A stretch of 64,000 nucleotides of DNA from Raillietiella orientalis (Eukaryota). The position numbers and the translations under genes are program-made. Each line of letters begins with the position of its first letter. Positions within the stretch are counted from its first letter, which is position 1. Below the pieces are notes generated by a model. It was not told where the DNA came from. It did no database searches and saw nothing but the letters and a program-made list of their open reading frames with translations. The stretch covers positions 2,914,001 through 2,978,000 of the forward strand of contig JAYWIR010000026.1 in assembly GCA_036172245.1 (NCBI GenBank), written 5' to 3'. This document shows, in pieces, positions 8,750-39,270 of this stretch.

Positions 8750-9345
8750 AGACCAGCTCAACAAGGAGGGGAGCAAAGAAGCGACGTCCGTCACCGAGCC
8801 CACATTTAATGGCGTCGCTTTCGAACGAGCGGACAAGGAGCTCGTCGCCTCACTACAGCGACCTTCCAATAAAACGAAAAAGGCCTTGAGGCGTCCGGCT
8901 TCCGCAAAGGGGTCTGAGGTCTCGGGACTCTGAAGCGAAATTTAAAAACTCACCTTCCTTAGCCGCGGAACCCCACCGGAAAGCTGGACTGAAGTCCAAG
9001 AATCCGCTGAGGATCATTTCCCCTATCGGAGGGGAAGACATGTTCTCCGGAGGCGACCGTGTAATGAGCGTGGGAAACTCCCAGGCCCCGTCGTCCAAGA
9101 AATTTAAACGCTCTGACGATTAGTGGCTGGACGAGGTGGAGGTCCAGCCTCAGGTTCCTAATATGCATCAGATCGCCATTGTCCCTGTCTACATCCCGCC
9201 TACCTCCTTCTTGGCAGGTGCTGCTATCTCACTTTCCCATCATGAATGCCGGAAATTGCCTCTCGCCGTCGTCTGCGGATCTCCTGCTGGAACGTCAAAG
9301 GGCTGATCGACAAGAACAAGAGAAGAGACGTGGCCGTCATTCTGC
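8750..9345 (+). pseudogene. X-type Tx1 fragment: ORF1 C-terminus and APE N-terminus
   Basis: RLRISCWNVKGLIDKNKRRDVA (APE motif I). Upstream FERADKELVA resembles LERVAEELAT at ~35270 (minus). Confidence 0.7.
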
Positions 9346-10850
9346 CATTCTTCTTCCCAGTGCTGCTGCAACAGTTTGGTGAGGCAGCTTCCAAAGAAAC
9401 GATGCTTTGCTGCCGATTACAATGGAAACAGCAGCACATCTTGTTCCCATTTCAAGGGGAACACGGAGCTGTCCAAACAAATGGGGGCACAACTATCTCT
9501 TCGGAGCACTGTTTGGTTTAACAAAGAAGTCCCTTTGCTCGATTCGGAGGAGTGGCGGCTTGCACCAGCTCCTCTGTCTTCCCGCCGCCGAGGAGCCTAG
9601 ACACTCCTGCAATTGTGAAGAAGAATTCGTATTTGCCACTTTGCAACTGTCATTGTTTGCCCTGAAGGCAGACAGAGCTGCAGCGAGTATTGTGGTGGCC
9701 AGACGATACGACTTCTTATTGTCCTGCACGACTTCGTTCAGAACATGGCTCAAGAAAAGTCGCAGGAGTCGAGGATCTTCCTAGCGCATAGCTTTGGAAC
9801 TGGCGCACGATGCAAAAGATTCCTGCCGCCATGCATTGGTGTTCATAGGCCAGCAGGAAATCCAGTTTTGGGCTTCCAGCAGCAAGGACAACTGCTTCAG
9901 TGGAAAGTCAAACCCCTTCCCGGTGTGCTGAAAGTTGTGCAGCAAAAAATGGAGTCCTTCGCTGCCCATGCAGCTCCTGAGTGAAAGGCGCGCGAGTAAG
10001 CGCCACGGTGTATACCACAGCTTGGCATGGAGCTGCAGCATACGAAACTGGACCTGCAGCTCGATGCTGCTCATGTCGAGGAATCCGCATTCTGACGCGG
10101 CGCCACCAAGTCTTTCAGTCTTACCCGGGAACTTGCAGCGCCCCACAGCGTTTTGCGTAGTAGACGTTGCTCCGAGGTCTTGACTTCCTGTGGGGGTTAG
10201 CAAACAAATAACAGGAGGCAGAGGAGGGGGCAACGGAGGTGTTCCATATGCTGGCCCATTTCGGCAAGACGAACTCGCTACCGGATAAAGGACCAAGCGC
10301 ACGCTCCGCCTTCCGAAGGCAGTTTGACCACTCTTCTGCGACGCAGAAGTCTCCCAACGGCACGCTAAGGTAATTGAAGTATATGACCTTGGAAATCCTC
10401 AGGTGGATCCAGTCGCACGGCCCTTCCTACGTCGCTCCCGCCTGAACGACCATGCACTTGCTCTTGTTGACGCTCACAACCGCTCCGCAACGGATCAACT
10501 CAAGAATCTTCAAGCGACTCCGCCGAGGTGGACATGAGCAACAGGACAAGCAGGTCATCGGCATACACTGCCACAAACGGTGTACCTGGACAGGAGCTCG
10601 GCAATTTGACGAGGTTAAGACTGTAAGACTCCAGCATGAATTGAAAGTAAATGCTGAAGAACAACGGGTTTTAGCTATCTTCCTGTCACATGCCCCTTCG
10701 CACCGGTACGCCGTGCGTGTGACAGCTACTAAAAGCAATAGATGTTATTGTGCGGCACCAGCAGGAGCGCAAGTATTCCAGCAAGACCGCTGGGAGCCCT
10801 ATACGTTCCAGTAGCTCCAGAAGATACTTTTGGTTCAGGCAGTCGAATGC
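9346..10850 (-). pseudogene. Family D ORF2 fragment (RT from the AFD motif to C-terminal region), degenerate
   Basis: AFDCLNQKYLLELLERIGLP, HGVPVRRG, YADD-like region, SVNKSKCM, KKSYRLATT. Homologous to 32195-34100 (+). Confidence 0.85.
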
Positions 10851-11265
10851 CGTCGCCGTTTGGAATGTCAACGGCATGATAGTATTCGGCAGGAGACGAG
10901 ACATGGCCGCCCTATTAGTATTCTTCTACCTTGCTCTGCTGCAGGAAATTCACGTGATCTCTGCAGAACAAGCGCAAGAGGTCGAGTGGATCTCTGTGGT
11001 ATCGGTGTGGGAAACCGCAGGGTTGCCTTCCATCTTCGGCCAGCAGTGGAGGCCGCGGCGCGCAGCGTGCGGTTCGACGATAACGTCGTGTCGGCCAGCT
11101 GTAACTCAAGTGGTCCGACTCCATCGACCTGATCGCCACGAATGTATACGCCCAGAAAGACGAAGAAAGAATTTTTCCTTACCCTCCAGAGCGACGCGCT
11201 GCCCGAGGGAGGCTGCGGAGGCCCATCTGGTTGCAGGTGATTTCAACGTTCGCTTTCACGGGAGT
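10851..11265 (+). pseudogene. A-type AP-endonuclease fragment
   Basis: AVWNVNG, LLQEIH, AVEAAARSVRFD, AHLVAGDFNV. Nucleotide similarity to the minus-strand APE at 18950-19200. Confidence 0.8.
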
Positions 11266-11269
11266 CGGT

Positions 11270-12562
11270 CCTGCAATCATGTCGCTCCGTTGCTCCGCTG
11301 TTTAGTTGTCTTATGCGTCCCGCTGCTCACTCCTAAGGATGAGCAGTGAACAACGCAACGTGGAAGACCTCGAGCCTGTGTTTCAGGAACTTCCCGCAGC
11401 TGGAACGATGGCGACCACCTATGCGAGCCCCACGCCACTGACCAGGAGCTTCGCGGACGTGGCTGCATCTGCAGCCATACAAGGATGCCTTCCAGACAAG
11501 GCGGAGTTGCAAGCGTATGTAGCCCAGATCTACAAACCTGCGCTCCGCTATAATGTAAGTGGGGTAGGTAAGGCTGGGGAGGAGTTCGCGGACGAACTCT
11601 ACCGTGTTGGAGTGCGAGAGGAGCACCTGCTAGCCCTCATGCCTGTTCCAGCATTGGGCTATGTCAAGGTCTGATGCAAGCAGGCTGAGCTTGTGCAACG
11701 GCTCCTCCGCACTCCTTTGTCCATTTGCGGGAAAAAAGTTTTTCCCTTCGCGATGGACAAGTCCTTTGTCGTTGTTCTATCGGACGTAGAGCCGGAGATC
11801 AACAACAAACAGTTGATGGACGCCTTGGCGAATTTTGCCACCGTTAATGCGGTGCGGAGGAAGGGTAGTTTCTATAGGAAATCCTCCTCCGTCCACACAG
11901 GATTTGCTGAGGTTAGGGCTACCGTCCCTAACCGCCGCACGCTGGCTACCACGCTACAGTCAACGGCAAGGTCGTTCACCTGTGGTTCGTAGGCAAAACT
12001 CGCGCGTGCCAGCAACGCAACAACGAAGAGCATCGGGCTAAAGAATGCCCTTTTCCAAAGTGCCGCTATTGCAAGGAGTCTGGGCACGAAATCAGGCATT
12101 GCCCGGACATTAAGAAAAAAAAGGAGGCTGTAGACTCCGGCGCGCCAAAGAGAGCTCTGAGGAGACAGCAGCAGCCTCAAAAAAACGAGAAAACGCGCGA
12201 AACCCCTCAAAAACCAGGCAGGAACGTAGAGTCTCAAGAGGCTTTCTCTGCCGCAAAGCCCCGAAAGTGAAATCGGCCGGCAGAGAAGTCTATTAAAAAA
12301 GGGCACGAGGGCTCCGCGCGTGCCGTCACTGATCTCGTAGCGGAAAGAGGAGTTACCGTCCTGGGAATGGAGTCAGTGAAGCCAGATACACCGGGGACAC
12401 GCGAATAGCATTTACACGAAAATCGTCTCCTTGAGCCCCTTGTCCATTTCGGGGGCTTCGACAGGAAACCCCGAAAAGGCAATTGGAATTCCGGCGAGAA
12501 AAGCTGGGAAAAGCGGCGGCGAGTTCTTTGGAAACTCGCCGCATCATCCCCAACGCGGTAGC
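11270..12562 (+). pseudogene. Family D 5' region / ORF1 (N-terminal part with decayed zinc knuckles)
   Basis: RSFADVA, AELQAYVAQIYKPALRY, RTPLSICGKKVFP, KCRYCKESGHEI. Collinear with 19390-20630. Confidence 0.85.
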
Positions 12563-15330
12563 TTTTACCCTGTTTGAATTGCGAAGGGGAGAGTTTGTTT
12601 ACCTTAACACCTTCAGTATTCTCACTTTTTCTCACTTTTCTCAATGTTCTGGAATCATTTGAAAAATATGACAGTGCATTTAAGTTGGAGTCCCTCCACA
12701 GCTTCTGATTCCAATTTCTCTTTCCAGGAGTTCTTTCAATGTTTCCATAGCTGGCACATGGCTTATTCCTGTTCACATTTTGGCCCTCCTTTTCACCATG
12801 CTTTTAATAAAGAGGGCTATGGTAGGGCGGACCATCGGGTTGTATCGTGGTACGTTGCCATTTCCTTCGAACATTCCAACGGGAGTCTCCATCTTCCGCA
12901 AGGCCGGCAAGTCTATCACCTGCTTAAGACTAGTCCAGTCTTGGAGCAGAGATGGGCAGGTGAGTACGCGAAGTTGAATTTCTCTGGTTCCACAGGCATT
13001 GCACTTCTCCTCCTGCGGATATATGGTCCAGTGTTTAGTCCTAGCCGCTCGGAATGCCGCCGTGATAAAACATCAGCAGCTCATCCTGAGTTCCGGGTAG
13101 TAAGTCTCTCGTCCAGATCGAGGTTCACCTTGGGGCAACAGTATCGGATGGTGGCTGCAGACGTCCTCGTCCGGTTCCTTTATTATTGCTTCTCGTACGT
13201 TTTTCCTGGTTATTAGGCGCCAACAGCTGAATTCCTGATTGTTTCAGACCTCTCAATATTTGTGGGTGAATCTTCCCACTATCTATATAGTTAGCTGATA
13301 CAGCCTCATTTTTTGGCGATTGCTATTAAATGAGAACTGCTTGCACTCCTTTATGGTAATCTTTGGGTTCTCAGATATCCACTTCCTGGTGTAAGGAGGG
13401 ACGTGCAAAAATCAGAGGATAATCCTGGGAAGTTCGCCCTCCCAAATTTTCTTACTTCTAAGCACTATTTTGTGGTGCTGGGTGGCCATCAGTGACCGTT
13501 TCCGTATCCAAGTAGGGTCGATGTTTCTCCACTATCCTTGCTTGCATAGGAAGGACATCAGTCCTGTGGAATTTTGATCAACTTTGGGTTGGTTTTCTAC
13601 CCCGCATAAAGCCACTCGTCCCATTTGGTGACAAGATCCAGGAATCGTCGCACGTCCAGCAGGTGCACGGACAGTTTGAGCGACATCATCCCTGTCCAGC
13701 CTTTGTCTCGCGGTCTGCACAAGAGTTTCAGCATGACCCGCGGCTGAAACTTCCTCCACAGTATTCTCCGCTGCAGTTGTTCCACCTGCTGGCACGTGTC
13801 TTCGTGTACTCTACAAAAGGCTGCTCCGAAGAGCATCTTAAGAATGAGAACTCCGTTCCACAGGTTTGCCCTTTGCTTCAGGCAGAATTCGAATTGCACG
13901 TATTTTGCAGCCTCTTCTCTTGTTTTCATTAGGATTCCCTTCTACATTCCCTGCAAAGCCGAGACATCGCCGATGTGGACTTCCAGGTACTTGATATTAA
14001 CCAATGCTCGGAATCTTGCTTCCGCTAAGGCGGTAAGGTCCAGGATTCCGATGGGATTTCTGAGCGTTCATCTTGAAACCCAGTCCTCTTTCCATGGACT
14101 TGACGACACCGAAGAAAGAATACTGATCCATCTCGTTCTTCAGGAAGAAGGGCAGATCGTCCGCATACTCTAGGTAAGTCAGTCTGTCGTCAAGTCGTAT
14201 TCCTTCGAGACGGCCGCCACAGTGGATCAGTGAAAAAAACCGATTCCATATAAACTACGAACAGCATCGGACTAAGGTCGTCTGACGGATTCCCTTTTCC
14301 ATCATCATGTCTGCCGTATCATTTCTATTGATCGTCATCTTGCTGTACTGTCCTTCAAGATTCTTCTCCACGTAGTCGGCGAATTATTCTGGGTAGACCA
14401 GTTTTCTCAGAATCTTCATCAACCTTCCATGGCCCACGGAATGGTACGCATTCTCCATATCCGTGCATCCCACCACCAGGTTGTCGCCTCTGTAGCGACT
14501 GTGACCTAACGTTGCTTTGGCACACTTCACGTTCTCACACATGCTGCGTCCGGGCACCTCTCACGTCTGCATTGCACAAATTACGGATGGCACCGTCTTG
14601 CTTAAAAGGGTTAGCCCAGATAATGCTTAACCATTTGGCATCCGTGTTCATGATAAGGATGGGCCACCATTGGGTGACCTGAATCAGATCTCCTGCTTTG
14701 AGCAGCAGCCTCATGCGGATCTCGTGGAACGACTCGGGTAGCTTCCGTTCTTCTCGGATGTAAAGCGTGATCTCGTGGAACAACCGCAGGTAGGCGTTTA
14801 GTTACCGTTGATACTGCGAGATTGGCATGCAATCAGGGCCTGGAGCTTCGTTATTTCGAAGTCTAGCGAATGCTGCACTTCTTGGATGGAGATTTCTCCT
14901 TCTAGGCTTTCCTGCTGCTGAGGAGAGATTTGTTTTTGCAAAAATCTAAGAAAAACGTCCTGCTCGCTTCTTGACAATTCACGCTGTCGAAAATGGGAGT
15001 GTAGTGTTGATGGAAGGCCTCCGCTGTTTCTTCTAATGTATACCGAAACTGCTCTTTTTGCTGGATGCAGAAGATATCCGCTGAAAGATTTCCCTTCTCC
15101 TGCACGTCTACTTCTCCTTTTACGTTGCGGCAGACGTACTGGATCTGGTACTGGTCCCAGTGTTTGAAGAGTGAGCGATCTTGGATGATTTGCTCTCGGT
15201 ACGCTTGCTTCCTGATCTTCCTGTTTGCGAATTGCGCATTTCAGGACACGTGGATGGTTTCCTTCAATCTGTCCCAGTCCTCGACTCTGCGGATCGTTGT
15301 GTCGCGCAGGATCATCTCAAGAGTTCCTGG
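12563..15330 (-). mobile_element. Old, degenerate family B copy (ORF2 from end of APE to 3' UTR)
   Basis: EAAKYVQ...ANLWNGVL, YADD, TQWWPILIMNTDAKWL, ADIFCIQ, IRRVEDWDRLK and GMFEGNGNVP all match B ORF2, with many stops and frameshifts. Confidence 0.88.
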
Positions 15331-15439
15331 TAACAAAGAAGGGTTTGAAATCAGGAAGGCATACACATGTGTGCAGCGCTTGTGCCTACTTGCTTCCATG
15401 GCTGTCAACCCCTCAGATACCTCCTCTATTCCAACATCG

Positions 15440-15626
15440 ATGCGGTCGATCCATGGAGGCAAACATCGTTTTCGAGCGTCCCTGGATGCAGCTGCAGGAA
15501 GTCGTGGCGCTGCAAACCCTGGCTGGAACAGGAGGCGTAGCCGCAGGGAAAAAGAACAGGCGCCGAAGGCTGCAGGGAACGCCAGGTGCCTTGGCGGTCG
15601 CAGTCGACCTCCACAAGGCGTTCGAT
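15440..15626 (+). pseudogene. Family D RT fragment ending at KAFD
   Basis: GRSMEAN...TPGALAVAVDLHKAFD matches 32226-32405. Confidence 0.8.
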
Positions 15627-18600
15627 TTTCACCCGGATTTCGCCGATGCGTTTATTATAAAATAAACATTTACAAAGACGTGCAGTGGCTGGACCACTGC
15701 TCCAGCAACGAACGAAGAAACACAGAGCCTGCCGGGTCACCGGTTCGCAAACCTGTACGGTCCACCACGGCAACAGGGGGAAGGAGGAAAAAAAAAAAAC
15801 AAAATTAAAAGAAAATAAAAGAACTGGGAGGGTACGGGAAGGAATCACAGTTGCTGGTGGGGCCGTTGCATCCTTTGCAGGATGCCGGCAAGCTCTTCCT
15901 GCATACTTGCATCCAGGTGAGGCCATCGCGACGATCTCAGGAACTGGGAGGCTGGTTGGATGGCACCATGGACGCGTTTTCCCTTCCGTTGCCTTGCTCC
16001 AGGCAGTGACGATCCAGCGTACGCAGCACAAAGCTCCTAACGAGGCCGCAGGCCGTAGGGCGTCGGCAACGAAGAGGGTTTTCAGAGCGTCCCTGCGGTT
16101 GCCGCAGGGGATTACGATGGCCGCGGCAAAGCGGAACCAAAGGAGAGAAGGGCAACACAATCCACTAGCAGGTGGGAGAGGGACTCCCGTTCCCCACATC
16201 GAACGCAATTGGGGTCCACCGCTCCCCAGGTCCAATGGTGTCGGCGGGCGTTGCAGGGGAGTCCCCAGTCCTGCAACAGGAATGCCGACTCCTGCCATTT
16301 TAAGGAAAGGGTGGAGGTGTTCATAAGTATTGGGGGCCACTTCAAACGTTCAATGAGAACGTCGAGCAGCGCGCCCCAGCGAAGAAGTCCATGGGGAAAC
16401 CTACTCGGGGTGGCAGCGTCAGTCAGCTGACCCGTCATACACTCTCCTATCTTCTAGTCCTTCCCGGAGATTGTAACTGTAACCTCCCAATTCGCCGCAA
16501 CATCGCTGTCCAGATCTTCAATCAGGGAGGGCAGCGCGGCAGCGAGGGGCGTTCTTCCTGCCCACGCTCTCTTCTTTGGATCCTCCAGGATCCCGCGGAG
16601 CGTCCAACTTCTGTAACCCCCAAACAGGAACCTTCGTTCCTGTTGAAAGCGTTGCATGCCGAACTGTCCCCACGTTCAAACGGTTTTCTGCAGCCAGGCA
16701 CAACAGTTCAAAGGGCGACAGGTGACCAATCATGGGTTTTTCCGGTACAGCGCAGCCACCCTCCGGAGCTGGAGTCCGCATCAGATGACGCAGCGACGGA
16801 GTGCAAGAAATGACGTCAGACCCATCTTACCGGTGGCAAGGTGGAGGAGGAGACGTGCAGGGACGCACCAACAGGTGCACCACAACTCTGGAACAAGTGC
16901 CGACAATCGGAACTGGAGCTGAAGCTCCAGCCGCTCCAGCGTCAGGAGGCCCAGACCACCGTCCCGACGAGGAGCGCACAAGTCCTTTAAGCGGACTCGG
17001 GCACTCCCGTTGCCCCTAAGGGCGATACGGAGGAAATCCTATGTCCGCTTTTCAATTCTCTCTGTGGGGGGGCAAACGAAAAGCAGGGGGCGGAGGAGAG
17101 GAGCCGCGAACGTGTTCCAAACCGCGGCATGTTCAGGCAGGAAAAACCTGTCGCCTCGGAACGGGCCGATCGCCGTCTCTACTTTTTGGAGGCAGCAGGA
17201 CCACGCATCCGTAGGGGAGTAGTCCCCCAACGACACACCGAGGTACTTGAAGTACCTCACCGTGGGGATCCCCAAACGGACCCAGTCCTGCTGCCCTGCC
17301 CACGCCGCACCAACTGGCATCACGAACGACTTCACCCTGTTCACCGTAAGTCCGGTTCCACGATGCAGCAGTTCGAAGAACTCCTCGACCGCCGAAGCCG
17401 GAATGGACATAGGGAGCAGCAGCAGAAGGTTTTCCGCGTATGCTGAAACGACCGGCGTACCGGCACAGTCGTGTGGCAGGTGCGCCAGGGTTCCCCTGTA
17501 CGCTCTCAGTACCAACTCAAAGTAGGTAGTGAAGAGCAAGGGGCTCAGGCTGTCTCCCTGCCGGATCCCACGCCGCACCGGCACGCCATGCACGGTCCGC
17601 CCGCTGAAACTAACGTTGATGAGCGCGTCGCGCCAGCTGGAGCGCAGATAGGCCACTAATGAGGCCGGGAAGCCCAAGCGTTACAGAAGCTCCAGAAGGA
17701 GATTCTGGTCGACTAAATCGAAAGCTTTCCGCAAGTCGACTGCGACCGCAAGGGCTCCCTCCCCCACCCGACCAACCGACCCCTTGCCAGCGCACGCACC
17801 GGAATTCCGGCTGTGCACCAAGCTCCTTTCTTGTTGGAGCTCTAGCTAGGTGGAAGGGTGGAACAGGTTCGCCTCCATGCTTCTTCCGGGAACAGCATAT
17901 GTCTGTTCCGGGCTGATGAATATGTTGGCAACCCGTCCTAACCTCTCTGCCCAAACCTAGGGCTAGCAACTTGGCGTCCGCATTCACAATTGTGATGGGA
18001 CGCTAGTTGTTCATGCTCCTCAGATCTCCTCCCTTAGGGAGGAGCCGCACCTTTGCCGAACGAAACGAGGCGGGAACGTCACCTGTTTCGCATATCAGCA
18101 AGGTGAGTTGCTGTACCAGGGGGGTAAGCTCAGCCGCGAAAGTTTGGTAAAACTCCGCGGGCAGGTTGTCCTCCCCTGGAGCCTTGAGCCTCTTGAGCTT
18201 TCCGATGGCCGAGAGGATCTCGTCCATCGTGAAAGGCTCGTCGAGGGTCTTTCTCTCCTCCTCCCCGATCGCTGGAGCGCCTTCCGGAAGCAGGTCTCGT
18301 GAGACGTTCCTCTGCGGAGGTGTCCTGGCATACAGGGAGGAGTAGTAACTCCGCAGCAGGCCGCGGATTTGGGCGGGTGCCGAGTGCTCCTGGCCCTGAT
18401 CGTCCAGCAAGCTGGCCGATCCGGACTACGAGGCTTTCCTTTCGGCTCCCGCTTTGTATTACGCCAGCCTGCGGATGTCGGGGGTCCTAGCGGAACGAAG
18501 AGTCTGCAGATTGGCTCGTTGCTTACGGACCCCGGTCCCAAAACCCGTAGGTATGCAGTGCAGAGGGAACTGGTCGCAGAACTCCTGGACCGATCGCTTG

Positions 18601-19275
18601 AAGCGGTCCCAATCCTGGAGTGTCCGCAGCCTGAAGCTCCGTATGAACGTGCGGAGATGTTCCGCCGCGTCCGAAAGCTTCAGATAGTCCCCTGGTAGAC
18701 GCCACGTTGACAAGGGGGAACACCAGTCGCGCGGATGGATCTCGAGAACTAGCGGGCGATGGTCGGACAGCTCGCACGGTAACTTGCCGCGCCTGCCCAA
18801 GCGAGGGCACAGGTGCTCGTCAAGAGACACGTGGTCGATGCTGTCCTCCATCCCCGGTGCACTGGCTAACAAATTGCAGGTGTGCACCGCCATGCACACC
18901 TCATTGACCAGGTCGCGTTCGAAATTCTGCCCATCTGGTTTCAAGCGAACGTTGAAATCGCCTGCAACCAGATGGGCATTCCGCACGCCTGCTTTGGTCA
19001 GCCAGTTGCGCCTTAGGGCAAGGAAAAAATCTTTCCTCGCCCTCCTGTTCATCAGGTCCGCGCCTCTCGGTGCGTACACGTTCTTCACGATCATATCGAT
19101 CGAGTAAGACCACCTGAGATTCAGCTGGCCGACACGATCGTGATCGTTGAACCGCACGCCCAGAGTAGCGGCCTCGACGGCTTGCCGAAGCAAGTAGGCA
19201 ACACCGCAACTTTTCGGTCTCCAACAAATGTACCATAGCCGCCCTCCGGAGATCCTTTCGATCTCTTGTCCTTCC
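15627..19275 (-). mobile_element. Family A Tx1-like element: almost complete ORF2 (APE-RT-CCHC, frameshifted) and 3' UTR
   Basis: NVYAP, AGDFN, IDHV, SDH; KAPGED, DLRKAFD, GIRQGDSLSP, YAEN, KYLG; CVRC...HLLVDC. 3' end is AATAAA...CCGGGTGAAAA. Confidence 0.92.
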
Positions 19276-20620: not shown

Positions 20621-20632
20621 CGACTCGGCAAG
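20621..20632 (+). repeat. B target site / TSD copy 1 (CGACTCGGCAAG)
   Basis: Sits between D ORF1 and the 3' tail of the truncated B copy. Confidence 0.9.
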
Positions 20633-21722
20633 TTTCCCCAAGTTCCACAAGGGGTGGGGTAAATTTATTTTTCAAAAATTTTTCTACAAAAACATTCACA
20701 CTACAGTCTTTTTCATACAATTTGCACTGTTTTTACCACTCTGAAGTCCATAAGTTCACAAGTTCTGCACTCATGGTGGGTTTCCTGCTCTTTGGTCCCG
20801 GGCGTCGTCTTCTATCCTCTTCAGGATGAATCTGTTCGTCCAGGCTTGGATTTTCCCACAGTTTCTAATGCCCATTTCCCTCTTCAGGGGCCCTTGTAGG
20901 ATCTCCATCGGTGGTGCGGTTCTCCAGGCTTTCCTCATTTTTCACCACCGCACAAGTATGGCGGTGATGAAGAGGGCGATGGACGTCCTCACCATGCGAT
21001 TCTAACAGGGAACATTACCATCCCCCTGAAACATCCCGGCGAGGATCTCCATTACGGATCTGTTCGTGAGTCCGATGGTCCTTTTCAGGATCAGCCAGTC
21101 ATGCAGCAATGTGGGACACGTCAAGACATTAAGTCTCGTGTCGTTGTCTCCACATGCCGCGCAGTGTCGATCTTCCCGTCTTCCGGTATAGTACTGCAAT
21201 CGGGACCCACTCTGGATTCCTCCATGATAAAACATCAGGAGGTCATCCTGGGTGCCCGGCGGCAGGTCACTCCTCAAGAGCATCGTGCCGATCGCTAGCA
21301 GGTTGAACCGGTCACTTCCGTAGCGATCGGCGGCTTCCTGGAGGGCACTGATGTCACGGTCTTCTTCCCGAATTAATCTTCGGAGGTTTGTTTTGAACAA
21401 CCTCGACCACGCGAAGTCGTTGTGGTTGATCCACACCTCGCGCATCATGTGGGTAAACCTTCCTAACATCATCTCTATATACCTAAGTATACGAGTGTGA
21501 TGTAGGTACACTCCCCGCCTCCACTCCTGGATTCGTTGTAGGGTAACTCTGAACCGCTGGTGGATCCAGATTCTCGTGTCCGGCGTGACAGGAAGCATCC
21601 AAGGGATCACCAGGATGGACTCGTCCTGCAAAGTTCCCTACTTCTCGGAACGATCTTGATTTTGTGCTTTCGCACCAGCCGTTGCTTCCTCGTCCAGGTT
21701 GGGTCGATTTTTTTCCATTCGC
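20633..21722 (-). mobile_element. 5'-truncated family B copy (ORF2 C-terminus + 3' UTR), tandem to the full-length copy
   Basis: ORF 21002..21631 is highly similar to the B ORF2 C-terminus (QDESILVIPW...LLMFYHGG...CPTLLHDW). Same 3' terminal sequence. Bounded by CGACTCGGCAAG (20621-20632) and CGACTCGGCAGG (21723-21734). Confidence 0.93.
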
Positions 21723-25385: not shown

Positions 25386-25398
25386 AAAAGGGGAAGAC

Positions 25399-28840: not shown

Positions 28841-31640
28841 TTTCACCCGGTTGCGTGGGGGCGTTTATTCTTTAGGATAAAACAAACGTTGGTGGCTGAC
28901 CAGGTGGTCCGGCGACGCACTGGTATACAAAATTAAGCCTGCCGGGTCACCGGTTCGTATTCCGGCACGGTCCATCACGACAGCAGAGGGGCCAAGGACA
29001 AAACAAAAAATTAAACAAAAAAAAAAAATATATAATATCAAGATCTGGGGAGCACGGGAAGGGATCACAGTCTGCCGTGGGGCCGTTACATTTTTAGCAG
29101 GATGATGGCAATCTGTTTTTGGATTGTTGAATCCAGATGGGTCCATCCTGTCGCCGTCCGCATAAATTCGGCTGCGCACTGGACGGTACCCTTATCGCGA
29201 TGTCCTTTCGTTGCCTTGCTATTTGCAGCGACGACCCCGCGAAAGCAGCACAGAGCTCCTAACGAGGCCGATGGCCTAAGAGCGTCGCCTAAGAGGCCTA
29301 AGAGGGATCTAACTGCATCTCTGGGGCTGCCGCAGGGGATACCGATTGCCGGGTCAAAACGGTTCCAAAGGTCCGAAGAGCCACACAATCCAAAAGGACG
29401 TGAGTAAGGGACTCCCTTTCTCCACACCTCGCACAGTTGCGGCTCACCGCTCCCCAGGTCCAATGGTGTCTTCGGGCGTTGCAGGGGAGTCCCCAATGCA
29501 GCAACAATAGCGCCGATCCCTGCCATTTTAAGGGGAGGGTAAAGGTGTTCATCAGCACCGGGGGCCACTTTAATTGTTCCCACGGAACATTTAGCAGCTC
29601 GCTTCAGCGCAGAAGTCCAAATGGGTGGTAATCCGGGACGCAGTATTGCAGAGAATTCCCGTTTTCCATTCCCGATCTTTTTCTGCGTAACGGAGATTTT
29701 AGCATGCACATCCGATTTCGCAGCAGTGTTGCCATCCAAATGTTCCGCGAGCGAAAACAGCATTGCAATGAGGGGAGTTTTTCTTGCCCACGCTCGTTTT
29801 TGGGGGTTCTCCAGGAACTCTCGGAGCGTCAGGCGGTTATTACGGGCGAAGAATTGTCTCTACCCTTCTTGCGTGCGTTGCTGGTAGCTTCTTTCCCACG
29901 TCTGAACCGTTTTGTGCAGCCATGCAGGAACGTGAACATGGATACAGCAGAGCCATCCTGCGTTCTTCCTCATCAGGTCAGCCTCTCTCCGCAGCTGCAA
30001 CTCGCAGTGACCGACTTGGCGGCGACGACAAAGCTCTAGTAAGGATGACAGTCCCACCTTGCCTGTATAGTTTTCGATGAGGAGACGTGCGGGCTCGCAC
30101 CAGCTGCTATTCCAATGTTTCGCCACTAGAACGACTAAGCGAAACAGGAGCTGGAGCTTCAGCCGCTCTAGCGTCAGGAGCAGTGACCGCCGTCCCGACG
30201 CAGAGCGCTCAAGTCCTCAAGCGGAAATCGCACCCTCCCATTACCTCACAGGGCAATCCTTAGGAGGTCCTTCGTCCGCTTTTTAGTCTCTATGGTGGGA
30301 AGGCAAACAAAAAGTAGTGAACGGAGAAGGGGAGCCACGAATGCGTTTCACACCGCGGCTCGTTCCACCAGGAAACACCTGCGGTCTTTGAACGGGCCGA
30401 TCGCCATCTCCACCTTCTGAAGGCAGCTGTACCACGCATCCGAAGGAAGAAAATCCTCCATCTGTACGCCGAGGTAGTTCAAGTACCTCACCGTGGGGAT
30501 CATCAAACGGACCCAGTCCTGCTGCCCGGCCCACGGCGCACTAACTGGCATCATGGACGACTTCGCCCTGTTCACCGTAAGTCCGGTTCCCCGATGCATC
30601 AGGTCGAAAAACTCCTCGACCGCCGAAGCTGGGGTGGACATAGGGAGCAGCTGCAGTAGGTCTTCCGCATATGCTAACACCGCGGGCGTAACGAAATAGT
30701 CGCGCGGCAGGTGCGCTAGAGTTTCCCTGTACGCTCTCAGTACCAACTCGAAGTAGGTACCGAAGAGCAAGGGACTCAGGCTGTCTCCCTGCCGTATGCC
30801 GCGTCGCACCGGTACGCCGTGCACGGTGTATGCACTGAAAAAATCTCGATGAGCGCGTTGCGCTAGCAGGATCGCAGGTATGTCAGCAAAGAGACCGGGA
30901 AACCCAAGCGTTCCAGGAGCTCCAGAAGGACCCTCTGGTCGACACAGTCGAATGCTTTATGCAAATCGACTGCGACTGCGAGGGCTCCCTCCCTCCCAAC
31001 CATCCCGGATGTCCGGCTGCCCATCCTGACCCTTTCCTGTTGGAGCGCGAGAAAGGTGCTGGCGAGGAACAGGTTGGCATCCTTGCTACGCCCGGGAACA
31101 GCATATGTCTGCTCCGGGCTAATGAAGCTTTCCGCTAACCGCCTCAGGCGTTCAGCCCACAATTTCGCCAGCAGCTTGGCGTCCGCGTTTATCATGGTAA
31201 TCGGCCGACAGTTGCTCATGCTCCGAAGGTATCCTCCCTTAGGGAGGAGACGCACCTCTGCCGAACGAAACGAGACGGGGACGTCGCCCGTTTCGCGGAT
31301 CAGCAAGGTGAGTTTCTTTACCAGAAGTGTGAGCTCTGCCACGAAACATTGAAAAAATTCCGCTGGCAGGCCGTCCTACCCTGGAGCCTTCCGCCTCTTG
31401 AGCTTTTCGATGGCCGAGATGATCTCGTTCATCGTGAAAGGATCGTCGAGGGTCTTAATATTTTCCTCTTTGATCGCCGGAGTGCCTTCCAGAAGAAGTC
31501 GCGAGACATGCCGTTCCGGTGGAGCGCGCGCCTACAGGGAGGAGTAGAATTTTTTTAATAAGCCTTTCACCTGGGCGGGCGTGGAGTGCTCCAAGCCCTG
31601 GTCGTCCAGTAAGCTGGCCGACCCGGATTGCCATGCCTGC
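28841..31640 (-). mobile_element. 5'-truncated family A copy (RT, CCHC, 3' UTR), degenerate
   Basis: LLDDQG, LLPKGG, DLHKAFD, GIRQGDSLSP, YAED, CARC...HVLLDC. 3' UTR is homologous to 15627-15870. Confidence 0.9.
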
Positions 31641-31644
31641 CTCT

Positions 31645-32011
31645 CGGACGCCTCCGTGGGCGCAAACCTCGACGTTGCCGACGCCGCCGTCGCGGGCGCG
31701 ACCCTTGGCATCGCCGCCGCCACCTCACCGTTGCCATACGTTACCTTCATCTGCATGGGGGACGTTTGCCTCTCCTCTCCTGCTGATGCCTGCATCCTGG
31801 TGGCTGGTACTGCCGCTGAGGAAATTTGCGAGTCTTCCGTCGTGATCTCCTCAGCGCTTCTTTTGTAGATGTATCAGCAGATCCTACGCAGCACACTCTT
31901 GTCCACACTCACTTTCTTCTGCACACTTTCCCTCTCCGGGCACACACGATCACAATTAACAGATTAACCGTAGTCGTGCGCGCAAAACAATGAACCTCGA
32001 AGCCAGGTCAC
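31645..32011 (-). mobile_element. 5' end (UTR + ORF1 start) of another family B copy
   Basis: Homologous to 26890-27360 (VTYGNGEVAAAMPRVAP...ATSRFAP; ccgggcacacacga). Confidence 0.85.
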
Positions 32012-32023
32012 CGACTCGGCAAG
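32012..32023 (+). repeat. B target site at a second locus (CGACTCGGCAAG)
   Basis: Abuts the 5' end of another B copy. Followed by D ORF1 sequence homologous to 27373 onward (TPLPPFxGVA...EWKVVERRK). Confidence 0.88.
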
Positions 32024-34587
32024 AGAGGAGCAATCTCCCGACTGCCAAGATGACTCCGCTGCCTCCTTTTAAAGGCGTGGCGCAAGCGAAGCCACTAGAG
32101 GCGGTAGCGAAAACTTCAGAGGTTTCCGTGACGAAAGTCGCGGAAGCGTCCGAAAATCGTGACGGCGAATGGAAGGTTGTGGAGAGGAGAAAAGAAATAT
32201 CTCTGTGTTACTGGACGCTGTTACTGGGCGGTCCATGGACGCCAACCTCTTGTTCATCCGCACATGGCTGCAATTGCAGCATCGCGTGGCGATGGATCGT
32301 CGTGCAGAAGCGACGCCTTCGATCTCTCACCGGCGGAGGAGCGGGTCGCAAAGGGAAACTCCGGGAGCCTTGGCGGTTGCAGTCGATTTGCACAAAGCTT
32401 TTGATTGCGTGAACAAAAGGCTTCTCCTTGAGCTTTTGGAACGTCTGGGTTTCCCGGCATCCCTGTAGGAGTAATCGCGCTCCTGCTGGCGCCACGCGAT
32501 TACATTCATTGTTTTCAGTGGCTGTCGCGTGTACGTCGTGCCTCTACGGCGAGGAATTAGGCAGGGCGATAGCTTTAGCTCGCTGCTCTTTTGCAATTAT
32601 TTTGAATTGGTGCTGGAGGCTTGCATGTTGACGCTAGCCAACCTGCCTAGCTTCTGTCCGGGTACGCAGGCCGTGGCAGCCTATGCTGACGACCTGCTTC
32701 TTCTGTTGCCCATGTCCATCCCGGGAGCGTCGCTTGAATATTTCTTTGAGCTGATCCGTCGTGGTGAGGGCGTGAGCATCAACAGGAGCAAGTGTATGGC
32801 TGTTCCCGTGGGAGCGACGTGTGAAGGGCAGTTCGACTGGATCCGCCTCGGAATCCTCACGGGCAGGTACCTGAGGTGCCTTGGCGTGCCGTTGGGTGAC
32901 TTTTGCATCTCAGAAGCGTGCTCAAACTGCCTTCGGGAGGAAGATCGTGCACTTGTTCCGTTCTCAGTAGGCGAGTTCGTCTTGCCGGTACGGGCCAGCA
33001 TCTGGAACATCGTTGCCCCCCTTCTCCGTCTTCTGTTTGTTGTTTGTCCACCCCCTAGGAAGTCCAAGTCTGGGAGCAGCGCCTCCTCCGCAAAGCGTTG
33101 TGTGGCGCTGCAAGATCCCGCGTAAGACTGAAAGACTTGGTGGTGCCGCGTCAGGATGCAGGCTTGGGCATCCTAGACTTAAAAAGCATCGAGATCCAGG
33201 TGCAGTTTCGTATGCTGCGGTTCTGGGCCAAGCTGTGGTGTACGCCGTTGTGCTAACTCGCACGCCTTATACTAAGGCGCTGCACGGGAAGCGAGGAACT
33301 GCTTTCATTGTCTCCTCACTTTCGGCACACCAGAATAGGGTTTGGCTTCCCGCTGAGGCAGCTGTCCTTACTGCTGGAAGTCCAATATTGGATCTCCTGC
33401 CGCCCCAGGAACATTAATGGATGGCGGCAGGAATCTTTTTCATCGTGGGAAGCTTCCGAAGATCTTGGTCGCCTTCGACTTCTCCTCAGTCATCCATAAG
33501 ACGAAGTCATGCAGGACAAGAAGAAGTCAGATCGTTTGGCCGCCACACCACTCGCCTCAGCGCTTTTTGCCCTCAGAACAAGCAACGAGAATTGCCTACC
33601 GGCGAAATGGGAGTTCTCCTGCTCAATAGCGGGAGTCAGTAAGCTCCTCGGCTGCTGGACGACAAAGGATCTGGTGGAAACTGCCACTCCTCGTAATCAA
33701 GCAAAGGGCCTGCTTCGGTGGAGTGAGCATTTAAGTGTACCCCCCGAAGAGATAGTGGTTCCCCCCATTTGTTTGGACAATTCCGTGTTCCCCTTAAAGT
33801 GGAAACAAGATGTGCTGCTCTTTTTACACTGGGGATTCCACTGTAACCGGCAGCGAAGCATCGTTTCCGGGGGAGCTGCTTTGCCAAACTCTTTGAGGTG
33901 CGGAGTGATCGAGTCTTTTCCGCACCCCTTGCAGGACTGCGGTGACCTCCGTGAACTGTTGCGAAGGCTGATTTTAGCCATCCTGCCGCAGGGAGGCTCT
34001 GCCATTGATGTGCCGCGACGCTTCTTCAGCAGGAATGGATTTTCGGTTGGGGCGATTGTCGCAACCATGTGTTGAGTTCGCGCCATCGTGAATGCCCGCT
34101 ACGCCCTGTATTTGTCAGTGAAGCGAAGGGAGGCTCACCGGTTTGCAGCAAAATCCATGCAAATGGTTGCTAGGTGGTTTCATCTTCGTTACGAGGTGAA
34201 AAAGGACATCGCCGGCATCCATCGCCTGTTTACCGATTCTTAAGAACGGCGTAATCCGGTGACTCCCGCGACCTCTCACCCACCCATATCCCATTCCCGT
34301 TCGCTCCGTCGAATTCACGCTGCTAATACTTACATCCCGGTTCCTTATCGAGCGATCCCAAGGACCGTTGTCAGGACCTCACCCATTCATTGTTTTTCTT
34401 TTGTTTTTGTTTGTTTTCCCCTATCCCACATCATTCCGATTCTGTTATTCCGTCCTGCGTGCCAGGAAAATTTCCTTGATTTCTGTAGAGTCGTCGATTG
34501 GGAGCCTGATTTGGAACTGGTTTATTTTATATAATTTTTCGTTTATTATTACATGGAATAAACATCTTAGTGTGACCTGATGAGAAA
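32024..34587 (+). mobile_element. Family D element: ORF1 C-terminal stub fused (internal deletion ~32195) to RT, CCHC and 3' UTR
   Basis: DLHKAFD, GIRQGDS, AYADD, CLG; LRC...HPLQDC. T-rich 3' UTR, AATAAA at 34557-34562 and terminal CCTGATGAGAAA. Confidence 0.87.
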
Positions 34588-37500
34588 TCTCCCGGATGTG
34601 TGCTGCGGTTATCACGTGGATCTCCTTTAGGAGCGCCAGGTTGATCTCGTGCAGTGTGTCGGCCGTTTCTCGTTTGTTGCTGTCGCTGAGCAGCTTGTTT
34701 ACGTTCCAGCATGCCAAGCGAATTGGACGGCGTCAGGCGAGTTTACATATCCATCCTGGGAAAGTGGCAGTGCGACTCCCACCACCTGATCGTGCTGGAC
34801 GCTAGAAAAGAGAAGCGCTTCGCGCGGCATTTCGCCCTCCTCCCGCGAGGTCGACTGATCAGCAGGTCTGCTTGGAAGGACCGGAGCATCTCCCACCTGT
34901 TATGGGAATAGGTCTGTCAGGAGAGGCGAACATTGGGGTCGCGCCACCCACGTGCTCACCATCCTTCATGGGGGTTAGCTGCGATGCGACGTCCGGGCGT
35001 GGCAGATTCCCGTCGTGGGTTTCCACACTGTCCCTTGCCCCCTGAAGTGCCGGATTATCCATATCGCACCGAGGTCTGATGGATCACTTAGGCTTCTGGG
35101 ACCTACGTTCCGACTTCCGGGGTATAACTCCGTGGAGAAGGACTCGCTTACGGCATTCGGGACAGACTCGACTGCCTCCGCAGTTTCCATCGCCGCCGGT
35201 CTTCTCCCTTCCTTGCCCGATGGGTTTGCACGTTCTAGCAAACAGGTCGCGAGTTCTTCCGCCACTCGTTCTAAAGCGGCGTCATAGCTCCTGTCGAGAG
35301 TGTCACGCGGCTCACCGTCAGTGCAGGCGGAGGGTTCACCCTCACGGTCGTCCTGCTCAGCGGAGACGACAGTTGCAATTTCGCTGAGGGAGGCGGAGTC
35401 CAGAGCCTCCACGAGTTCCAATGTTTTCACCCGGGTAAGCTGGAGGTTTTATTATCTTAAAAAACAAAATTACAATTTATAATTGCAGTCGCTTGATTTT
35501 TCATTGTTTTTGTGTTCCTCTTGGAATACTTTTTCTTATTGTTTTGCACTTGTTTACCGACTTGTGTGCCGGTAAGGCCTACTCCACTCGCGAAGGGGAC
35601 GGGAAAAAAGAAAAAAAAATACACAAAAAAGCAGAAAAAGTCCTGAAGGACATTGTTTATGGGGAGGGGGAGGGAAGGGAAGGGATCACTGCTCGCCGAG
35701 GGGAAGCCTCGGCATCTGGTTACGGATGCTAACAAGTGCTAGCAGAATTTTCCTAAGCCGGCGCCAACGGGAAGTCTACTCCATGGAGATCACCGCCCAG
35801 TGGATGGCATTCCGACTGCTGCGGCCTCTTATCGACGCGTTCCACTTGTCCAGTAATCCTCGTATGCAGCAGAGAACTGCTACACACGCAGCACCTGGCA
35901 GGGAGTTTCGCATCAAGAGGCGACGAAAAATGTTTTTAGGGTCGCCCACCGCTACGTTTATGGCCGAAGAGAGTCGATCCCACGTTCGGCGGAGGGCAAC
36001 ACATTCGATGAGTAAGTGGGGGAAGGTCTCCCTTTCTCCACACTCAGTACAATGGGCATCCACATTCTCCAATGTCCAGTAAGACAGGCGTGCTCTGCTC
36101 AAAAGTCCCCAATGGAGCACAAGCAGCGCCGTCTCCTGCCAATCCAAAGGGAGAGTGCCACTGTCCCAATACACCAGGGGCCACTTCACCTCCTCTGGAG
36201 GTATGTTGAGCAGCTCGCCCTAGTGCACAAGTCCATTCGGCGTGACACTCGGGGTACTAGTGTCCCGTAGTTCCCGGGACGTCCTCGCGTTCAATAGGAC
36301 ACCTCCCACGATGCCTCCTCTTGGCTGTCCCTGGCTTCTCAGAGGAAGGGCAGTACAATTCAAGGTAGGTGAAGGAAGCCCACAGAAGTTTCCTTGGGTT
36401 GCATATGATCTCCTGCAGGGGGTGCCCAGTGTCCCTACCTCGACGGAGGCAGAAGTCCACATCGCTGGAGCCGTTGATTGTTGCCCACGCGAAAACGGAC
36501 TCCTGGAGCCAGGTAGTCCAGTTTGCAGGGCTGCAGGAGATCCACGGGTTGCTCCTCACCAGGGCCATCAATTCATGTAGCTGTGAACCACAATGGTACA
36601 GTCTACCGTCGTTGGCTACGAGGACTAAAGTCAGCCCATCGCAGCCGGTTGCCCTGTGGGCGAGGAGTCTTGCCGGAGCACACCAAGGTGCTTGCCAGTT
36701 CTTTGTCACAAGGAAAAGTTTTCTAAATTGGAGCTGTAGCTTTATGCGCTCGAACGTCAGGATACCAAGTCCACCGTCCCTGCGTGGAGAGCACATGTCT
36801 TTAAGTCGGACGCGGGGCCTCTGGTTACCCCAAAGGGCTTTCCTGATGAGGCCCCTTGTCCGTGTCCTAATTTGGGGAAGTTTGGGGCACACAAAAAGTA
36901 GAGGGCGAATGAGGGGGGCCGCAAAGGCGTTCCACACCAAGGCCCGTTCTCGCAAGTAAAACTTGCCGTCCCGGAACGGGCCGATCGCTAACTCTACCTT
37001 TTGAAGACGGTCGGACCAGGCTTCTGCGTTCCAATGCATCCGAGCATCTGCAGAGATTTTCCCTGCGCGGTTTTGCATTTTCAGCATCGCGCGTTGCTCT
37101 TGTTTCTGCATTCGGTTGCTGTTTTTGCTGTGTTTTGTGATTCTTTCGGGGCTTCACCAACTGCCAACCGTACAGGCCCTCAGCTTTCTCGGAGGTTTCC
37201 TCGTTTGACGCGTGCTGGACAAGTTGAAGCTGCGACAGCTTGTACCGCCCTTCCCTTTCAACTTCTCTTTTATTCCTGTTATGTTCGCGTATCCCTTGAT
37301 CTATCTCCGCTGCAGGGGGAAACGGGGTAGCGCGTTTTGGGCACACTCTGCACACGTGGTCCTTTTCTTTGCATACGTGGCACTCGATGTTCAGACACTT
37401 TCTTCAAGGTGGCCTATGGCATCACAGTAACCACAGTACTTGGGCTTTTCTACATACTATACGTCAACCCACTTGTGGTTGACTTCTTATTTACGGGGGA

Positions 37501-38150
37501 GCCTACGGTGTTCGTGGACCTTCACACGCCCTGATGCCGCTTCGCTGAAAAGGCCTCGTAAATCATGGATTTTGGCCATAGCGCATGCTCATTCCCGTGT
37601 TTTTTTAATTCCGTACTAACCGCAGTTCTCGTTATGCGATTTTTAATTCCTGTGAGTTGAACGACCACTGATCGGTCCATCAAGACCGGGAAGATCTTTC
37701 GTCCCTCCACTGTAAGCAGTGTGTTCATCAGGAGCTGCGTCAGACATATCCTTACAAGTCAGCTCAAAGCGCTGAGCACCGCTCAGGATGGAGAGACCAT
37801 CCAGATCCTCTTCGCGAACATTCAACGACTGCAACACCCTCGTGAAGGAGCGTGCAGTATTCCCGGCAAACAAAGGGCACAGCTTATATACAAGCGAAGG
37901 ATTGTATGCGCTGGCCCTGTACGCTGCCTGTTCAGCCAAAGGCTCCGCACTTGGTGCGGCCACGATGGCGCTTTACTTCCTCGCCGTCAGTGTGGACGTT
38001 TCTACTGGGGCGGTTGCCTTCATTTTTCAAGGTTCAGGAGAGGCGCAAGCCTCTCCAACGCCTATCTGCAGCGCGATGTCCTCAGGCAACGCTGCCATTG
38101 GACACCAGCGACTCCACACACAAACACAGTTCAAAAACTTCCCACTAACC
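34588..38150 (-). mobile_element. X-type element 5' half (ORF1 with decayed knuckles + APE N-terminus), interrupted by the C insertion at 35424-37027
   Basis: AYRASAYNPSLVYKL, CKEKDHVCRVC, ACWNVN...LLKEIH. ORF1 reads through (SDALE/LVEALD) once the insert and one TSD copy are removed. Confidence 0.8.
35424..37027 (-). mobile_element. 5'-truncated family C copy with 9-bp TSD GTTCCAATG (35415-35423, 37028-37036)
   Basis: KVELAIGPFR...PRRDGGLG...CTEC...HLLIEC. 3' end is AATAAA...CCCGGGTGAAAA. Exact flanking direct repeat. Confidence 0.9.
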
Positions 38151-38705
38151 GAAATTCGCGGAGCGCGACAAAAGCACGTCCGCCCGATCGTGTGCAGCAA
38201 CTTGTTCTCAAGTGGTAGGAATCGATCGAACTTGTCTTCACGGACGTGTATGCGCCGAGCCGCCCTGCGCGTCGCACCGAAAGGCTCGAGATTCTACAGG
38301 GACTGCGCGGCCGTTGGCTCAGCGATTCCGACCTCGACGTGGCCCACTACGTTGCCGGGGACTTTAACCTCCTCGTGCTATCATAGGAGATACACCGTCG
38401 CCAGAAGAAGCGGCTAGTGAACAAACTGTTCCTGTCAGTGCACGCTTCGAATGGCTGACGATCCTGGGATGCGTACTTTGACGGACCATGCGTTCCACTA
38501 CGACCACCTTCTCTGTCGGGTGGGTTGAAGAGCTCTCATGCCATCCGAGGTTCCCGATTACCACAAGTCGGAATTTGAGCTTCTACCGCCTGAAAATGGC
38601 CTTCCGACGCACGACTGGATGTCGCCGCCCGACTGGCTAACAAATTTGGTGGCGGCGGGGCACCTCCTCCAGCATCTTTGGGGCTTCGTCGTTCGAAAGC
38701 TCATT
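38150..38705 (+). pseudogene. D-type APE fragment, degenerate
   Basis: QQLVLKW, VAGDFN, HKSEFELLP, DWL...HLLQHLWGFV. Collinear with 28270-28840. Confidence 0.75.
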
Positions 38706-39270
38706 TCTCACCCGGGTGCACCGGGACGTTTATTCTTTCGAACAAAACAAGTCAAGAGTCTGTGGCTTAACTAGTGGTCCAGCCACGCGCGAACAAACAA
38801 TAGCAACCCTGCCGGGTCACCAGTTTGCAGACCGAAACGGTCCAGCGCGACAGCAGAGGGAGCAGGGACAAAACAAAAAGAAAAAACAAAAAACAAATAT
38901 ATAAAAACAACATCTGAGGGGCACGGGGAGGGATTACAATTTCCTGGGGCACCGCTACATCCATTCTAGGATGCTGGAAAACTTTTGTTGCATCTGTATA
39001 TCCAGGTGGGTCCATCCTGTTGCCATCTTCATAAATTTAGCGACGCATTGGACGGCACCCTTATAGCTTGGTCCTCCTGTTGTATTAATCCAAACAGCGA
39101 CGATCTCGCGAACGTAGCACAGGGTTTCTAACGAGGCTGCAGGCCGGAGGGCATAGCAAACAAAGGGGGTTTTAATTGAGTCTCTGAGGTTGCCGCAGGA
39201 GATTCCGATGGCCTCGGCGAAGCTGTTCCAAAGGGGACAAAGAGCAACACAATCCATAAGGAGATAGAAG
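38706..39270 (-). mobile_element. Family A 3' fragment (ORF2 end + 3' UTR)
   Basis: DCVALCPLWNSF...LRPAASL...ATGWTHLD. 3' UTR contains CCTGCCGGGTCAC. Confidence 0.85.

Follow-up and report, generated by a model that had tools for sequence, protein, structure and literature searches.

We analysed a stretch of Raillietiella orientalis DNA (contig JAYWIR010000026.1 of assembly GCA_036172245.1, positions 2,914,001 to 2,978,000 of the forward strand), hereafter the window (64 kb, no N, GC content ~0.50; all coordinates are those of the window), and find that its 8.7-39.3 kb portion, the nest under study, consists of nested L1-superfamily long interspersed nuclear elements (LINEs) of at least four lineages (A, B, D and X) plus an A-like element, E. 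The best reading of this nest, and in our judgement a probable one, is site-specific insertion of LINE into LINE among these lineages. It is carried by the complete 3′ termini of the inserts, the end that is fixed by target-primed reverse transcription (TPRT), which meet the same host position in different copies, so that the same nucleotide is hit in independent insertions as in target-specific LINEs. With 17 junctions (136 pairs), a tolerance of 7 nt and a host of 5 kb, 0.19 coincidences would be expected by chance, and the probability of at least five is 1.8e-6.

Fragments were placed on a common coordinate of the second open reading frame (ORF2) with our own hidden Markov model (HMM), tblastx chains and tblastn with P0001, an intact 619-aa reverse transcriptase (RT) from a public contig that has 76% amino acid identity to A1 over 213 aa, since the sensitivity of a Pfam scan of 197 stop-to-stop ORFs of at least 75 aa was too low for fragments. 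Junction boundaries were set at the nucleotide level by the complete 3′ ends of the inserts and not by host homology, while D 5′ ends are not fixed to the nucleotide by alignment of the 5′ untranslated region (UTR). The elements of the nest carry apurinic/apyrimidinic endonuclease (APE), RT and zf-RVT domains and a CCHC-containing ORF1, and are arranged as follows.

8437..8750, minus strand: RT fragment of the unrelated LINE family R (S1; tblastn with the 61333-63927 ORF, aa 84-187; tblastx)
8751..9373, plus strand: X, A-like, running to the APE N-terminus ('CWNVKG...VLLQQ') and cut there (S2; HMM 9267-9341 at profile 6-30; tblastx)
9374..10850, minus strand: D, RT from 'AFD' toward the 3′ end, without ~680 nt of 3′ end relative to S15 (S3; blastn 9370-10850 to 33893-32397, 74%)
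10851..11269, plus strand: A, APE N-terminus ('AVAVWNVNG') to 'GDFNVRFHG', its 5′ end adjoining the D 'AFD' codon (S4; Exo_endo_phos on ORF 10723-11346, E 0.0019, under the curated cut-off; 71.5% nucleotide identity to the A1 APE)
11270..12553, plus strand: D, 5′ UTR and ORF1 (two CCHC knuckles, basic tail), the tail cut by B′ (S5; translation; alignment to S9)
12554..15440, minus strand: B′, a diverged B lineage, with complete 3′ end and 5′-truncated at the APE 'SDH' region (S6)
15441..15621, plus strand: D, RT 'GRSMEAN' to 'KAF(D)' (S7; translation; tblastn with P0001, q175-234)
15622..19290, minus strand: A1, complete 3′ end (...AATAAACGC...CCGGGTGAAAATCGA, no poly(A)) to APE 'HV' (S8)
19291..20620, plus strand: D, 5′ UTR and ORF1 (two CCHC knuckles), the tail cut by B (S9)
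20621..21722, minus strand: B, 3′ fragment (last ~1.1 kb), 85.6% identical to intact B (S10)
21723..27556, minus strand: intact B, its 3′ end adjoining the 5′-truncated end of S10 (S11; RVT_1 5e-35, Exo_endo_phos 1.9e-13, zf-CCHC 7e-4)
27557..28835, plus strand: D, ORF1 tail and APE to 'LLGFVI' (S12; HMM 28055-28807 at profile 7-277; translation; length check against X)
28836..31647, minus strand: A2, complete 3′ end, 5′-truncated between APE and RT (S13; blastn 15622-18445 to 28836-31647, 73%)
31651..32204, minus strand: B, 5′ fragment (B 27556..26886), ending at the start of the internal repeat of B ORF1 (S14)
32222..34575, plus strand: D, RT '(V)TGRSMDAN', intact 'KAFD' and complete 3′ end, AATAAA at 34558 (S15)
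34576..35419, minus strand: X, APE N-terminus ('...ALLKEIHVITAAHIREISHQ') and inter-ORF region (S16)
35420..37033, minus strand: E, A-like 3′ part (RT C-terminus, zf-RVT, 3′ end ...CCCGGGTGAAAACATTG) in X ORF1, parallel to it (zf-RVT 1.3e-5 on 35779-36219; 82% identical to 53964-54926)
37034..38150, minus strand: X, ORF1 (CCHC) and 5′ end (translation; tblastx to D ORF1)
38186..38700, plus strand: D, APE from ~50 codons past 'EIH' to 'LWGFVV' (S20)
38701..39286, minus strand: A3, complete 3′ end, ~580 nt retained (S21)

An initial annotation, made from the sequence alone, had these fragments, strands and order right, including a mirror-image unit made of X(+) at ~8750-9373, D(-) at 9374-10850 and A(+) at 10851-11269. 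Its treatment of X, of which only the 5′ part is seen, as a single family fails, as protein similarity between the APE N-termini of its two copies is only 39%.

B 3′ ends lie in the tail of D ORF1 at 12553/12554 and at 20620/20621, with the D flank alignable up to the junction (...AAACTCGCCGCAT..CCCCAA and ...AAACACGCTGCAT..CCTTTAA, respectively), and the 3′ end of intact B is stacked exactly on the 5′-truncated end of the older B fragment at 21722/21723, the two copies being 15% different. All three B-type 3′ ends in the window (12554, 20621 and 21723) are therefore at, or stacked on, the D ORF1-tail site. A further D/B junction, offset by ~5 nt, is found in X1, a public run that matches 26% of words, in which a contig joins 20615 to 21719 (+1 letter). 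A 3′ ends meet the end of the D APE at 28835 and 38700, on the same codon to within one ('LLGFVI' before A2, 'LWGFVV' before A3), and the A1 3′ end lies in the D RT at 'KAFD' (15621/15622, after AAGGCGT(TCGAT)). At 10850 the A 5′ end, the start of its APE, meets D at GCATTCGAC, the opposite side of the same 'KAFD' codon. Of five A/E-type 3′ ends (15622, 28836, 38701, 35420 and ~58165), three are inside D coding sequence, at two codons. Insertion of B in D ORF1 and of A at the D APE end and RT 'AFD' had all been proposed and is borne out here. A site that had escaped the initial annotation is the D RT '(P)GRSM', which B-family 5′ ends adjoin in both units of the nest (15440/15441 and ~32204-32222); the partners are B′ truncated at 'SDH' at one and a full-length B 5′ end plus ~20 nt at the other, and the two D pieces are only 67% alike. 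A further 'KAFD' break, at 53074, was rejected as homology runs on upstream ('VGDLAFD').

Insertion of D in the APE N-terminus of A-like elements is likewise seen, at 34575, 9373 and ~19290, but these junctions are spread over 19 codons and do not share one. The sole intact D 3′ end, at 34575, follows '...EIHVITAAHIREISHQ' of the X(-) APE N-terminus; in the mirror unit, X(+) stops at 'LLQQ' against the D that is short of its 3′ end; and A1 starts at 'HV' beside the D 5′ region, the end of S16 lying 16 codons later. Recurrence at homologous codons, claimed at first for all junctions, thus holds for the B/D and A/D sites and not for the APE N-terminus, and the head-to-head meeting of X and D placed at ~38150 is fuzzy in position (38130-38190) and falls on a codon other than that of A1. 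Counted by insert, same-target 3′ flanks in the window are 3/3 for B, 3/5 for A/E and 1/1 intact end for D, a tiny sample from one locus; by way of comparison, a criterion quoted in PMC4494074 takes one kind of sequence in >20% of flanks as the mark of a target-specific LINE.

The elements themselves show the signature of TPRT, complete 3′ ends with variable 5′ truncation: A1, A2, A3 and E have a common 3′ terminus and differing 5′ endpoints, as do B′, the B fragment and intact B. Poly(A) tails are absent from all elements, and A, B and D end a few tens of bases past AATAAA. The ORF2 of B combines an N-terminal APE with an RT, as expected of L1-superfamily (APE-type) elements without long terminal repeats (LTRs), and both domains are recognized by Pfam. 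For the A, D and E fragments, matches to RVT_1, Exo_endo_phos and zf-RVT are all under the curated cut-offs of Pfam and the main support is the HMM map. Fragments around intact B have 65-85% DNA identity to one another. In an RT tree built without named Tx1 references, A1, A2 and P0001 group with the D copies (support 100/99) and B groups with B′ (98/98), the A/D and B clades being sisters (87/86); the long branch of S3 is not meaningful, because its row is partly out of frame (10 X and 6 stops in the high-scoring segment pair). RT residues shared are 56-60% between A and D and 28-30% between B and A/D. The closest named proteins are ~30% identical and taxonomically scattered (tick, lizard, frog, plants, Mucor), and a protein-cluster search returned only generic APE/RT clusters, with no taxon attached. 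A metagenome scan with an A/D/E C-terminal alignment yielded a single locus (L001), no part of which matched the window at E ≤ 1e-5. Intact B, on the minus strand, comprises ORF1 (25399-27393, 664 aa, CCHC) and ORF2 (22171-25398, 1075 aa) with 0 stops and 0 frameshifts in the 1739 codons of 22171-27393 and, judging by this sequence, may still be active.

If composite blocks of D and its inserts had formed once, been multiplied (by segmental, tandem or inverted duplication, or as a retrotransposed D transcript with antisense inserts) and then decayed, the junctions would be inherited and the divergence of the copies even. The layout is suggestive of such a history, as units I and II run in the same order (D ORF1, B-type element, D from 'GRSM'), S3 and S15 are 76-80% alike with only a mild third-position excess, and the D/X junction of the mirror unit resembles that at 34575 with a ~740-nt deletion. 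However, a plain DNA alignment of B with B′ gives mismatches at codon positions 1/2/3 of 0.295/0.228/0.502 (~805 sites each), in contrast to neutral simulations of the same B ORF, which are flat at ~0.35, and the same strong third-position excess is found for D ORF1 (S9 versus S5, 0.307/0.234/0.496, p = 3e-10) and the D APE (S12 versus S20, 0.273/0.275/0.468, p = 7e-5). The NG86 omega of these three pairs is 0.24-0.34, compared with 0.47-0.74 for neutral simulations in the same tblastx pipeline. Furthermore, the 810 codons of B′ are broken by 12 in-frame stops and 4 changes of frame, those of intact B by none, a decay far too small for the 34% mismatch between them, which neutral change therefore cannot account for. 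The third-position excess indicates that the B/D and A/D junctions are flanked on either side by sequence whose divergence arose mostly under selection, and hence in separate active lineages before insertion. Part of the codon-position signal could stem from a mutation bias at third positions rich in GC, a bias on which neither the decay counts nor the difference in divergence between junction sides depends. At the APE-end junction (J2) the D side scores 0.613 (shuffled baseline 0.612) and the non-coding A side 0.736, and at the D/X junction (J4) the D side scores 0.80 and the X side 0.68 (shuffled baseline ~0.60), rather than the equal, neutral divergence on both sides expected of a segmental duplication. 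The differing B′ and S14 ends at '(P)GRSM' also speak against inherited blocks, as do the two X copies, which are much less alike than the two D copies. The codon-position mismatch between B and the B fragment is flat and uninformative either way. Duplication is thus disfavoured for the best-sampled junctions, composite blocks are already disfavoured for J1 and J2, and as an account of the whole nest we consider them unlikely. The recurrent junctions are, as the initial annotation supposed, independent insertions at fixed sites in related LINEs.

At all five recurrent sites the insert is antiparallel to its host, and the host sense strand bears the primer end. The antiparallel rule put forward at the outset fits these sites, but a site-specific nuclease fixes the orientation per site, so the sample is five sites and not 12-13 antiparallel junctions (two-sided p ~0.06), which is too few to establish a rule, and three of the four non-recurrent junctions are parallel. 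The one parallel exception noted originally, the D 5′ end after an A APE at ~11270, is present, but it is not alone: E(-) lies inside X(-) ORF1, A2(-) adjoins the B(-) 5′ fragment at 31647/31651, coinciding with the start of the B ORF1 tandem repeat, and B is stacked on B. X is continuous around E, the distance from the start of X ORF1 to APE 'WNV' being 1704 nt without E versus 1682 nt in D (S9 + S12). The E flank (...GCCTCCACGAGTTC) resembles the 'KAFD' site (...CCTCCACAAGGCGTTC), which fits recognition of a sequence and not of a host 'family'. To the right of the nest, an E-like 3′ fragment (57684-58165) ending ...AATAAATGCCCGGAGAATCCGGGTGAAAAAGG comes after a third D-like ORF1 (56316-57062), both on the plus strand; this may be a second instance, after that at 35420-37033, of an A/E-type element running parallel to the D/X-type ORF1 that precedes it.

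Non-specific nesting in a repeat-rich, gene-poor region, with coincidences that reflect chance or breaks noticed only at conserved motifs, seems very improbable to us. It would suit a window that is almost all LINE debris (13 other ORFs are without a Pfam match), homology that is most visible at conserved motifs, and the parallel orientation of most non-recurrent junctions, but the nucleotide-level boundaries come from complete insert 3′ ends and the excess of coincidences over chance is that given above. Least credible of all are false junctions from collapsed or mis-joined repeats in the assembly. The region is repetitive, and of the 621 X1 contigs placed in a comparison with 19300-39290 only 31 are at least 99% alike (346 are <90% alike) with some bins at a depth <1; nevertheless, a copy divergence of 15-35% is too large for assembler mis-joins, and the independent run X1 holds a D/B junction at the same site. 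Regions without X1 cover are uninformative. Among the X1 joins listed, one from 20027 to 28019 may represent an insert-free D copy, the length between the two points not being given.

Under site-specific insertion, the nest would have been built by TPRT of several related L1-superfamily lineages whose endonucleases nick specific sequences within the coding sequence of other lineages. The B lineage would use a single site in the basic tail of D-type ORF1, and possibly a second at RT 'PGRS'; the A lineage would use two sites in D, at the 'KAFD' codons and where the APE domain ends, and the D lineage a region near the catalytic 'LQEIH' of A-like APEs. Because the insert is antiparallel at every recurrent site, both the nick and the priming of cDNA synthesis would be on the host sense strand. 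Insertions that came later would use these sites again or stack on them, and the nest would afterwards be blurred by deletion and rearrangement. That the older B fragment has a young, intact B at its 5′ end suggests that the part recognized by B is in the D sequence on the right-hand side (from 27557 on), which would survive the first B insertion and permit the site to be used again. Unit I may stem from two B′ insertions (ORF1 tail and 'PGRS') followed by recombination between them. On the model of Tx1L and R1, for which endonuclease-based target choice is described in the relevant part of PMC4494074, we infer that the endonuclease sets the site. Site choice may be assisted if the 3′ end of the A RNA (...AAAAUCGA) pairs with the nicked 'TCGA(T)', a match that leaves the junction at 15622 ambiguous by 5 nt. 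Targeting was originally described as mutual, which is apt for A into D and D into A-like elements and not for B, which inserts into D only while nothing cleanly targets B.

More tentatively, and with rather less confidence than in site-specific insertion itself, we suggest that these lineages may form a guild that has come to nick the sense strand within conserved codons of rival lineages (in the ORF1 tail, at 'KAFD' and 'PGR' of the RT, and at 'LQEIH' and the end of the APE), each insertion gaining a multicopy safe harbour and inactivating a competitor. The safe harbour is itself something that we infer from the targeting. Purifying selection on the rival would keep the harbour intact, and arrays would grow without any host repeat. 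Insert and host lineages are both deeply diverged (dS above 1) around the same site, and such divergence on both sides of one junction would point to a long co-evolution of insert and host.

Several observations weigh against site-specific insertion. There are only 2-4 events per site, all within one 64-kb window, and neither an empty site nor a target-site duplication was seen for any insertion in the window. The A-site motif is short (RRGYTC^), and A2 itself contains the 9-mer without an insertion in it, which makes A specificity hard to explain from sequence. The evidence for 'PGRS' consists of two 5′-side junctions only, and the codon-position signal is weak for A1/A2 (p = 0.03) and S3/S15 (p = 0.006), which alone do not exclude copying. 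No clean nest is formed where A2 meets the B 5′ fragment, where the D 5′ end meets A at 11270 or by the 3′-truncated D at 9374, and the big D(+) element is flanked by different hosts at its ends, A1 and X. We considered A1 and X (S16) as the halves of one host split by the big D, and rejected this as their 48-nt overlap is only ~40% alike. A simple inversion as the origin of the mirror unit was also rejected, since the S4/A1 overlap, 71.5% alike over 260 nt (blastn), identifies these as different copies.

Some features of the elements and their surroundings stand apart from the junctions. B is the family with the deepest cover in X1 (depth 55-100), and its ORF1 contains a tandem repeat (26885-27096) of 27-48 nt units with Ala/Pro-rich coding, at the start of which S14 stops exactly (31651, corresponding to 26886), beside the 5′-truncated A2. 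A portion of the A-rich A 3′ UTR (28638-29304, AAAACAAAAA...) has a summed X1 contig depth of 434 versus 8-100 elsewhere and is much more abundant in X1 than the remainder of the element. Three A-like copies have a common 5′ boundary (31647, 52445 and 58520) at A coordinate ~920-950, between APE and RT, which may be a common truncation point or an extra insertion site. A-like RT N-terminal fragments at 51805-52480 and 58452-59132 form an inverted pair (64-73% alike), and a near-perfect palindrome of 34 nt (32/34) lies at 53416-53449. R, the other LINE family of the window, has an 864-aa open frame at 61333-63927 (minus strand, RVT_1 3.5e-29) and fragments at 8437-8750 and 53207-54004 (both minus strand), and in the RT tree it stands apart from A/D/B on a long branch beside animal-derived sequences. 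To the left of the nest, 6001-8000 is AT-rich (GC 0.354), and no similarity to any other part of the window was found for it.

Site- or region-specific LINEs that share one niche are familiar from R1/R2 in ribosomal DNA (rDNA) and HeT-A/TART at Drosophila telomeres. In contrast to those systems, which use a host repeat or a chromosome end, the window has 0 Rfam matches (no rRNA, snRNA or tRNA-like RNA) and no satellite or telomeric repeat was found in it, the sole tandem repeat being that inside B ORF1. The absence of a host repeat asserted by the initial annotation is therefore correct for the window, in which no telomere repeats or rRNA genes were found that could serve as the substrate of an array. 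According to the part of PMC4494074 on targets, Tx1-clade LINEs insert into other transposons at fixed positions: Tx1L into the Tx1D piggyBac element, and the crocodilian Tx1-Mar into Mariner-N4_AMi, Tx1-8_Crp and Tx1-4_AMi into LTR elements and Tx1-9_AMi into Harbinger. The lineages described here resemble the Tx1 clade, as described there, in being APE-type LINEs at a fixed position in another transposon family, but unlike Tx1 families they target related LINEs from their own superfamily, at sites in coding sequence and in more than one direction. The concept of a LINE array that extends itself without a host repeat has precedents, as summarized for Zepp/ZeppL of green algae, L1-type LINEs that insert into existing copies and form clusters (PMC8226300), and for Cnl1 of Cryptococcus, a non-LTR element that prefers to insert within itself and builds nested arrays (PMC9942834). 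As these sources outline them, Zepp targets its own family in tandem arrays of 3′ ends and Cnl1 arrays are tandem, of one family and subtelomeric, whereas insertion here is cross-lineage, antiparallel and at several defined codons. The only same-family tandem insertion in the nest is B on B at 21722/21723, which can be explained by the D site being used again. Distinctive here is the antiparallel insertion of several related lineages into one another, at defined codons within conserved domains and with deep divergence of both insert and host lineages around a shared site. A full-text keyword search of a literature library found no paper on cross-family LINE-into-LINE targeting at coding motifs, which is weak evidence of novelty and not proof of absence.

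If the pattern is genome-wide, the niche of one transposon would be the coding sequence of another, related transposon, with a specificity kept over long divergence. As a natural panel of APE endonucleases that differ in their definable targets, the lineages would then be tractable, and B among them is apparently intact. Alongside LINEs that target host repeats, DNA transposons or themselves, there would be a case in which LINE lineages compete with or parasitize one another, and the pattern bears on how LINE-only arrays form, for example candidate centromeric or heterochromatic blocks.

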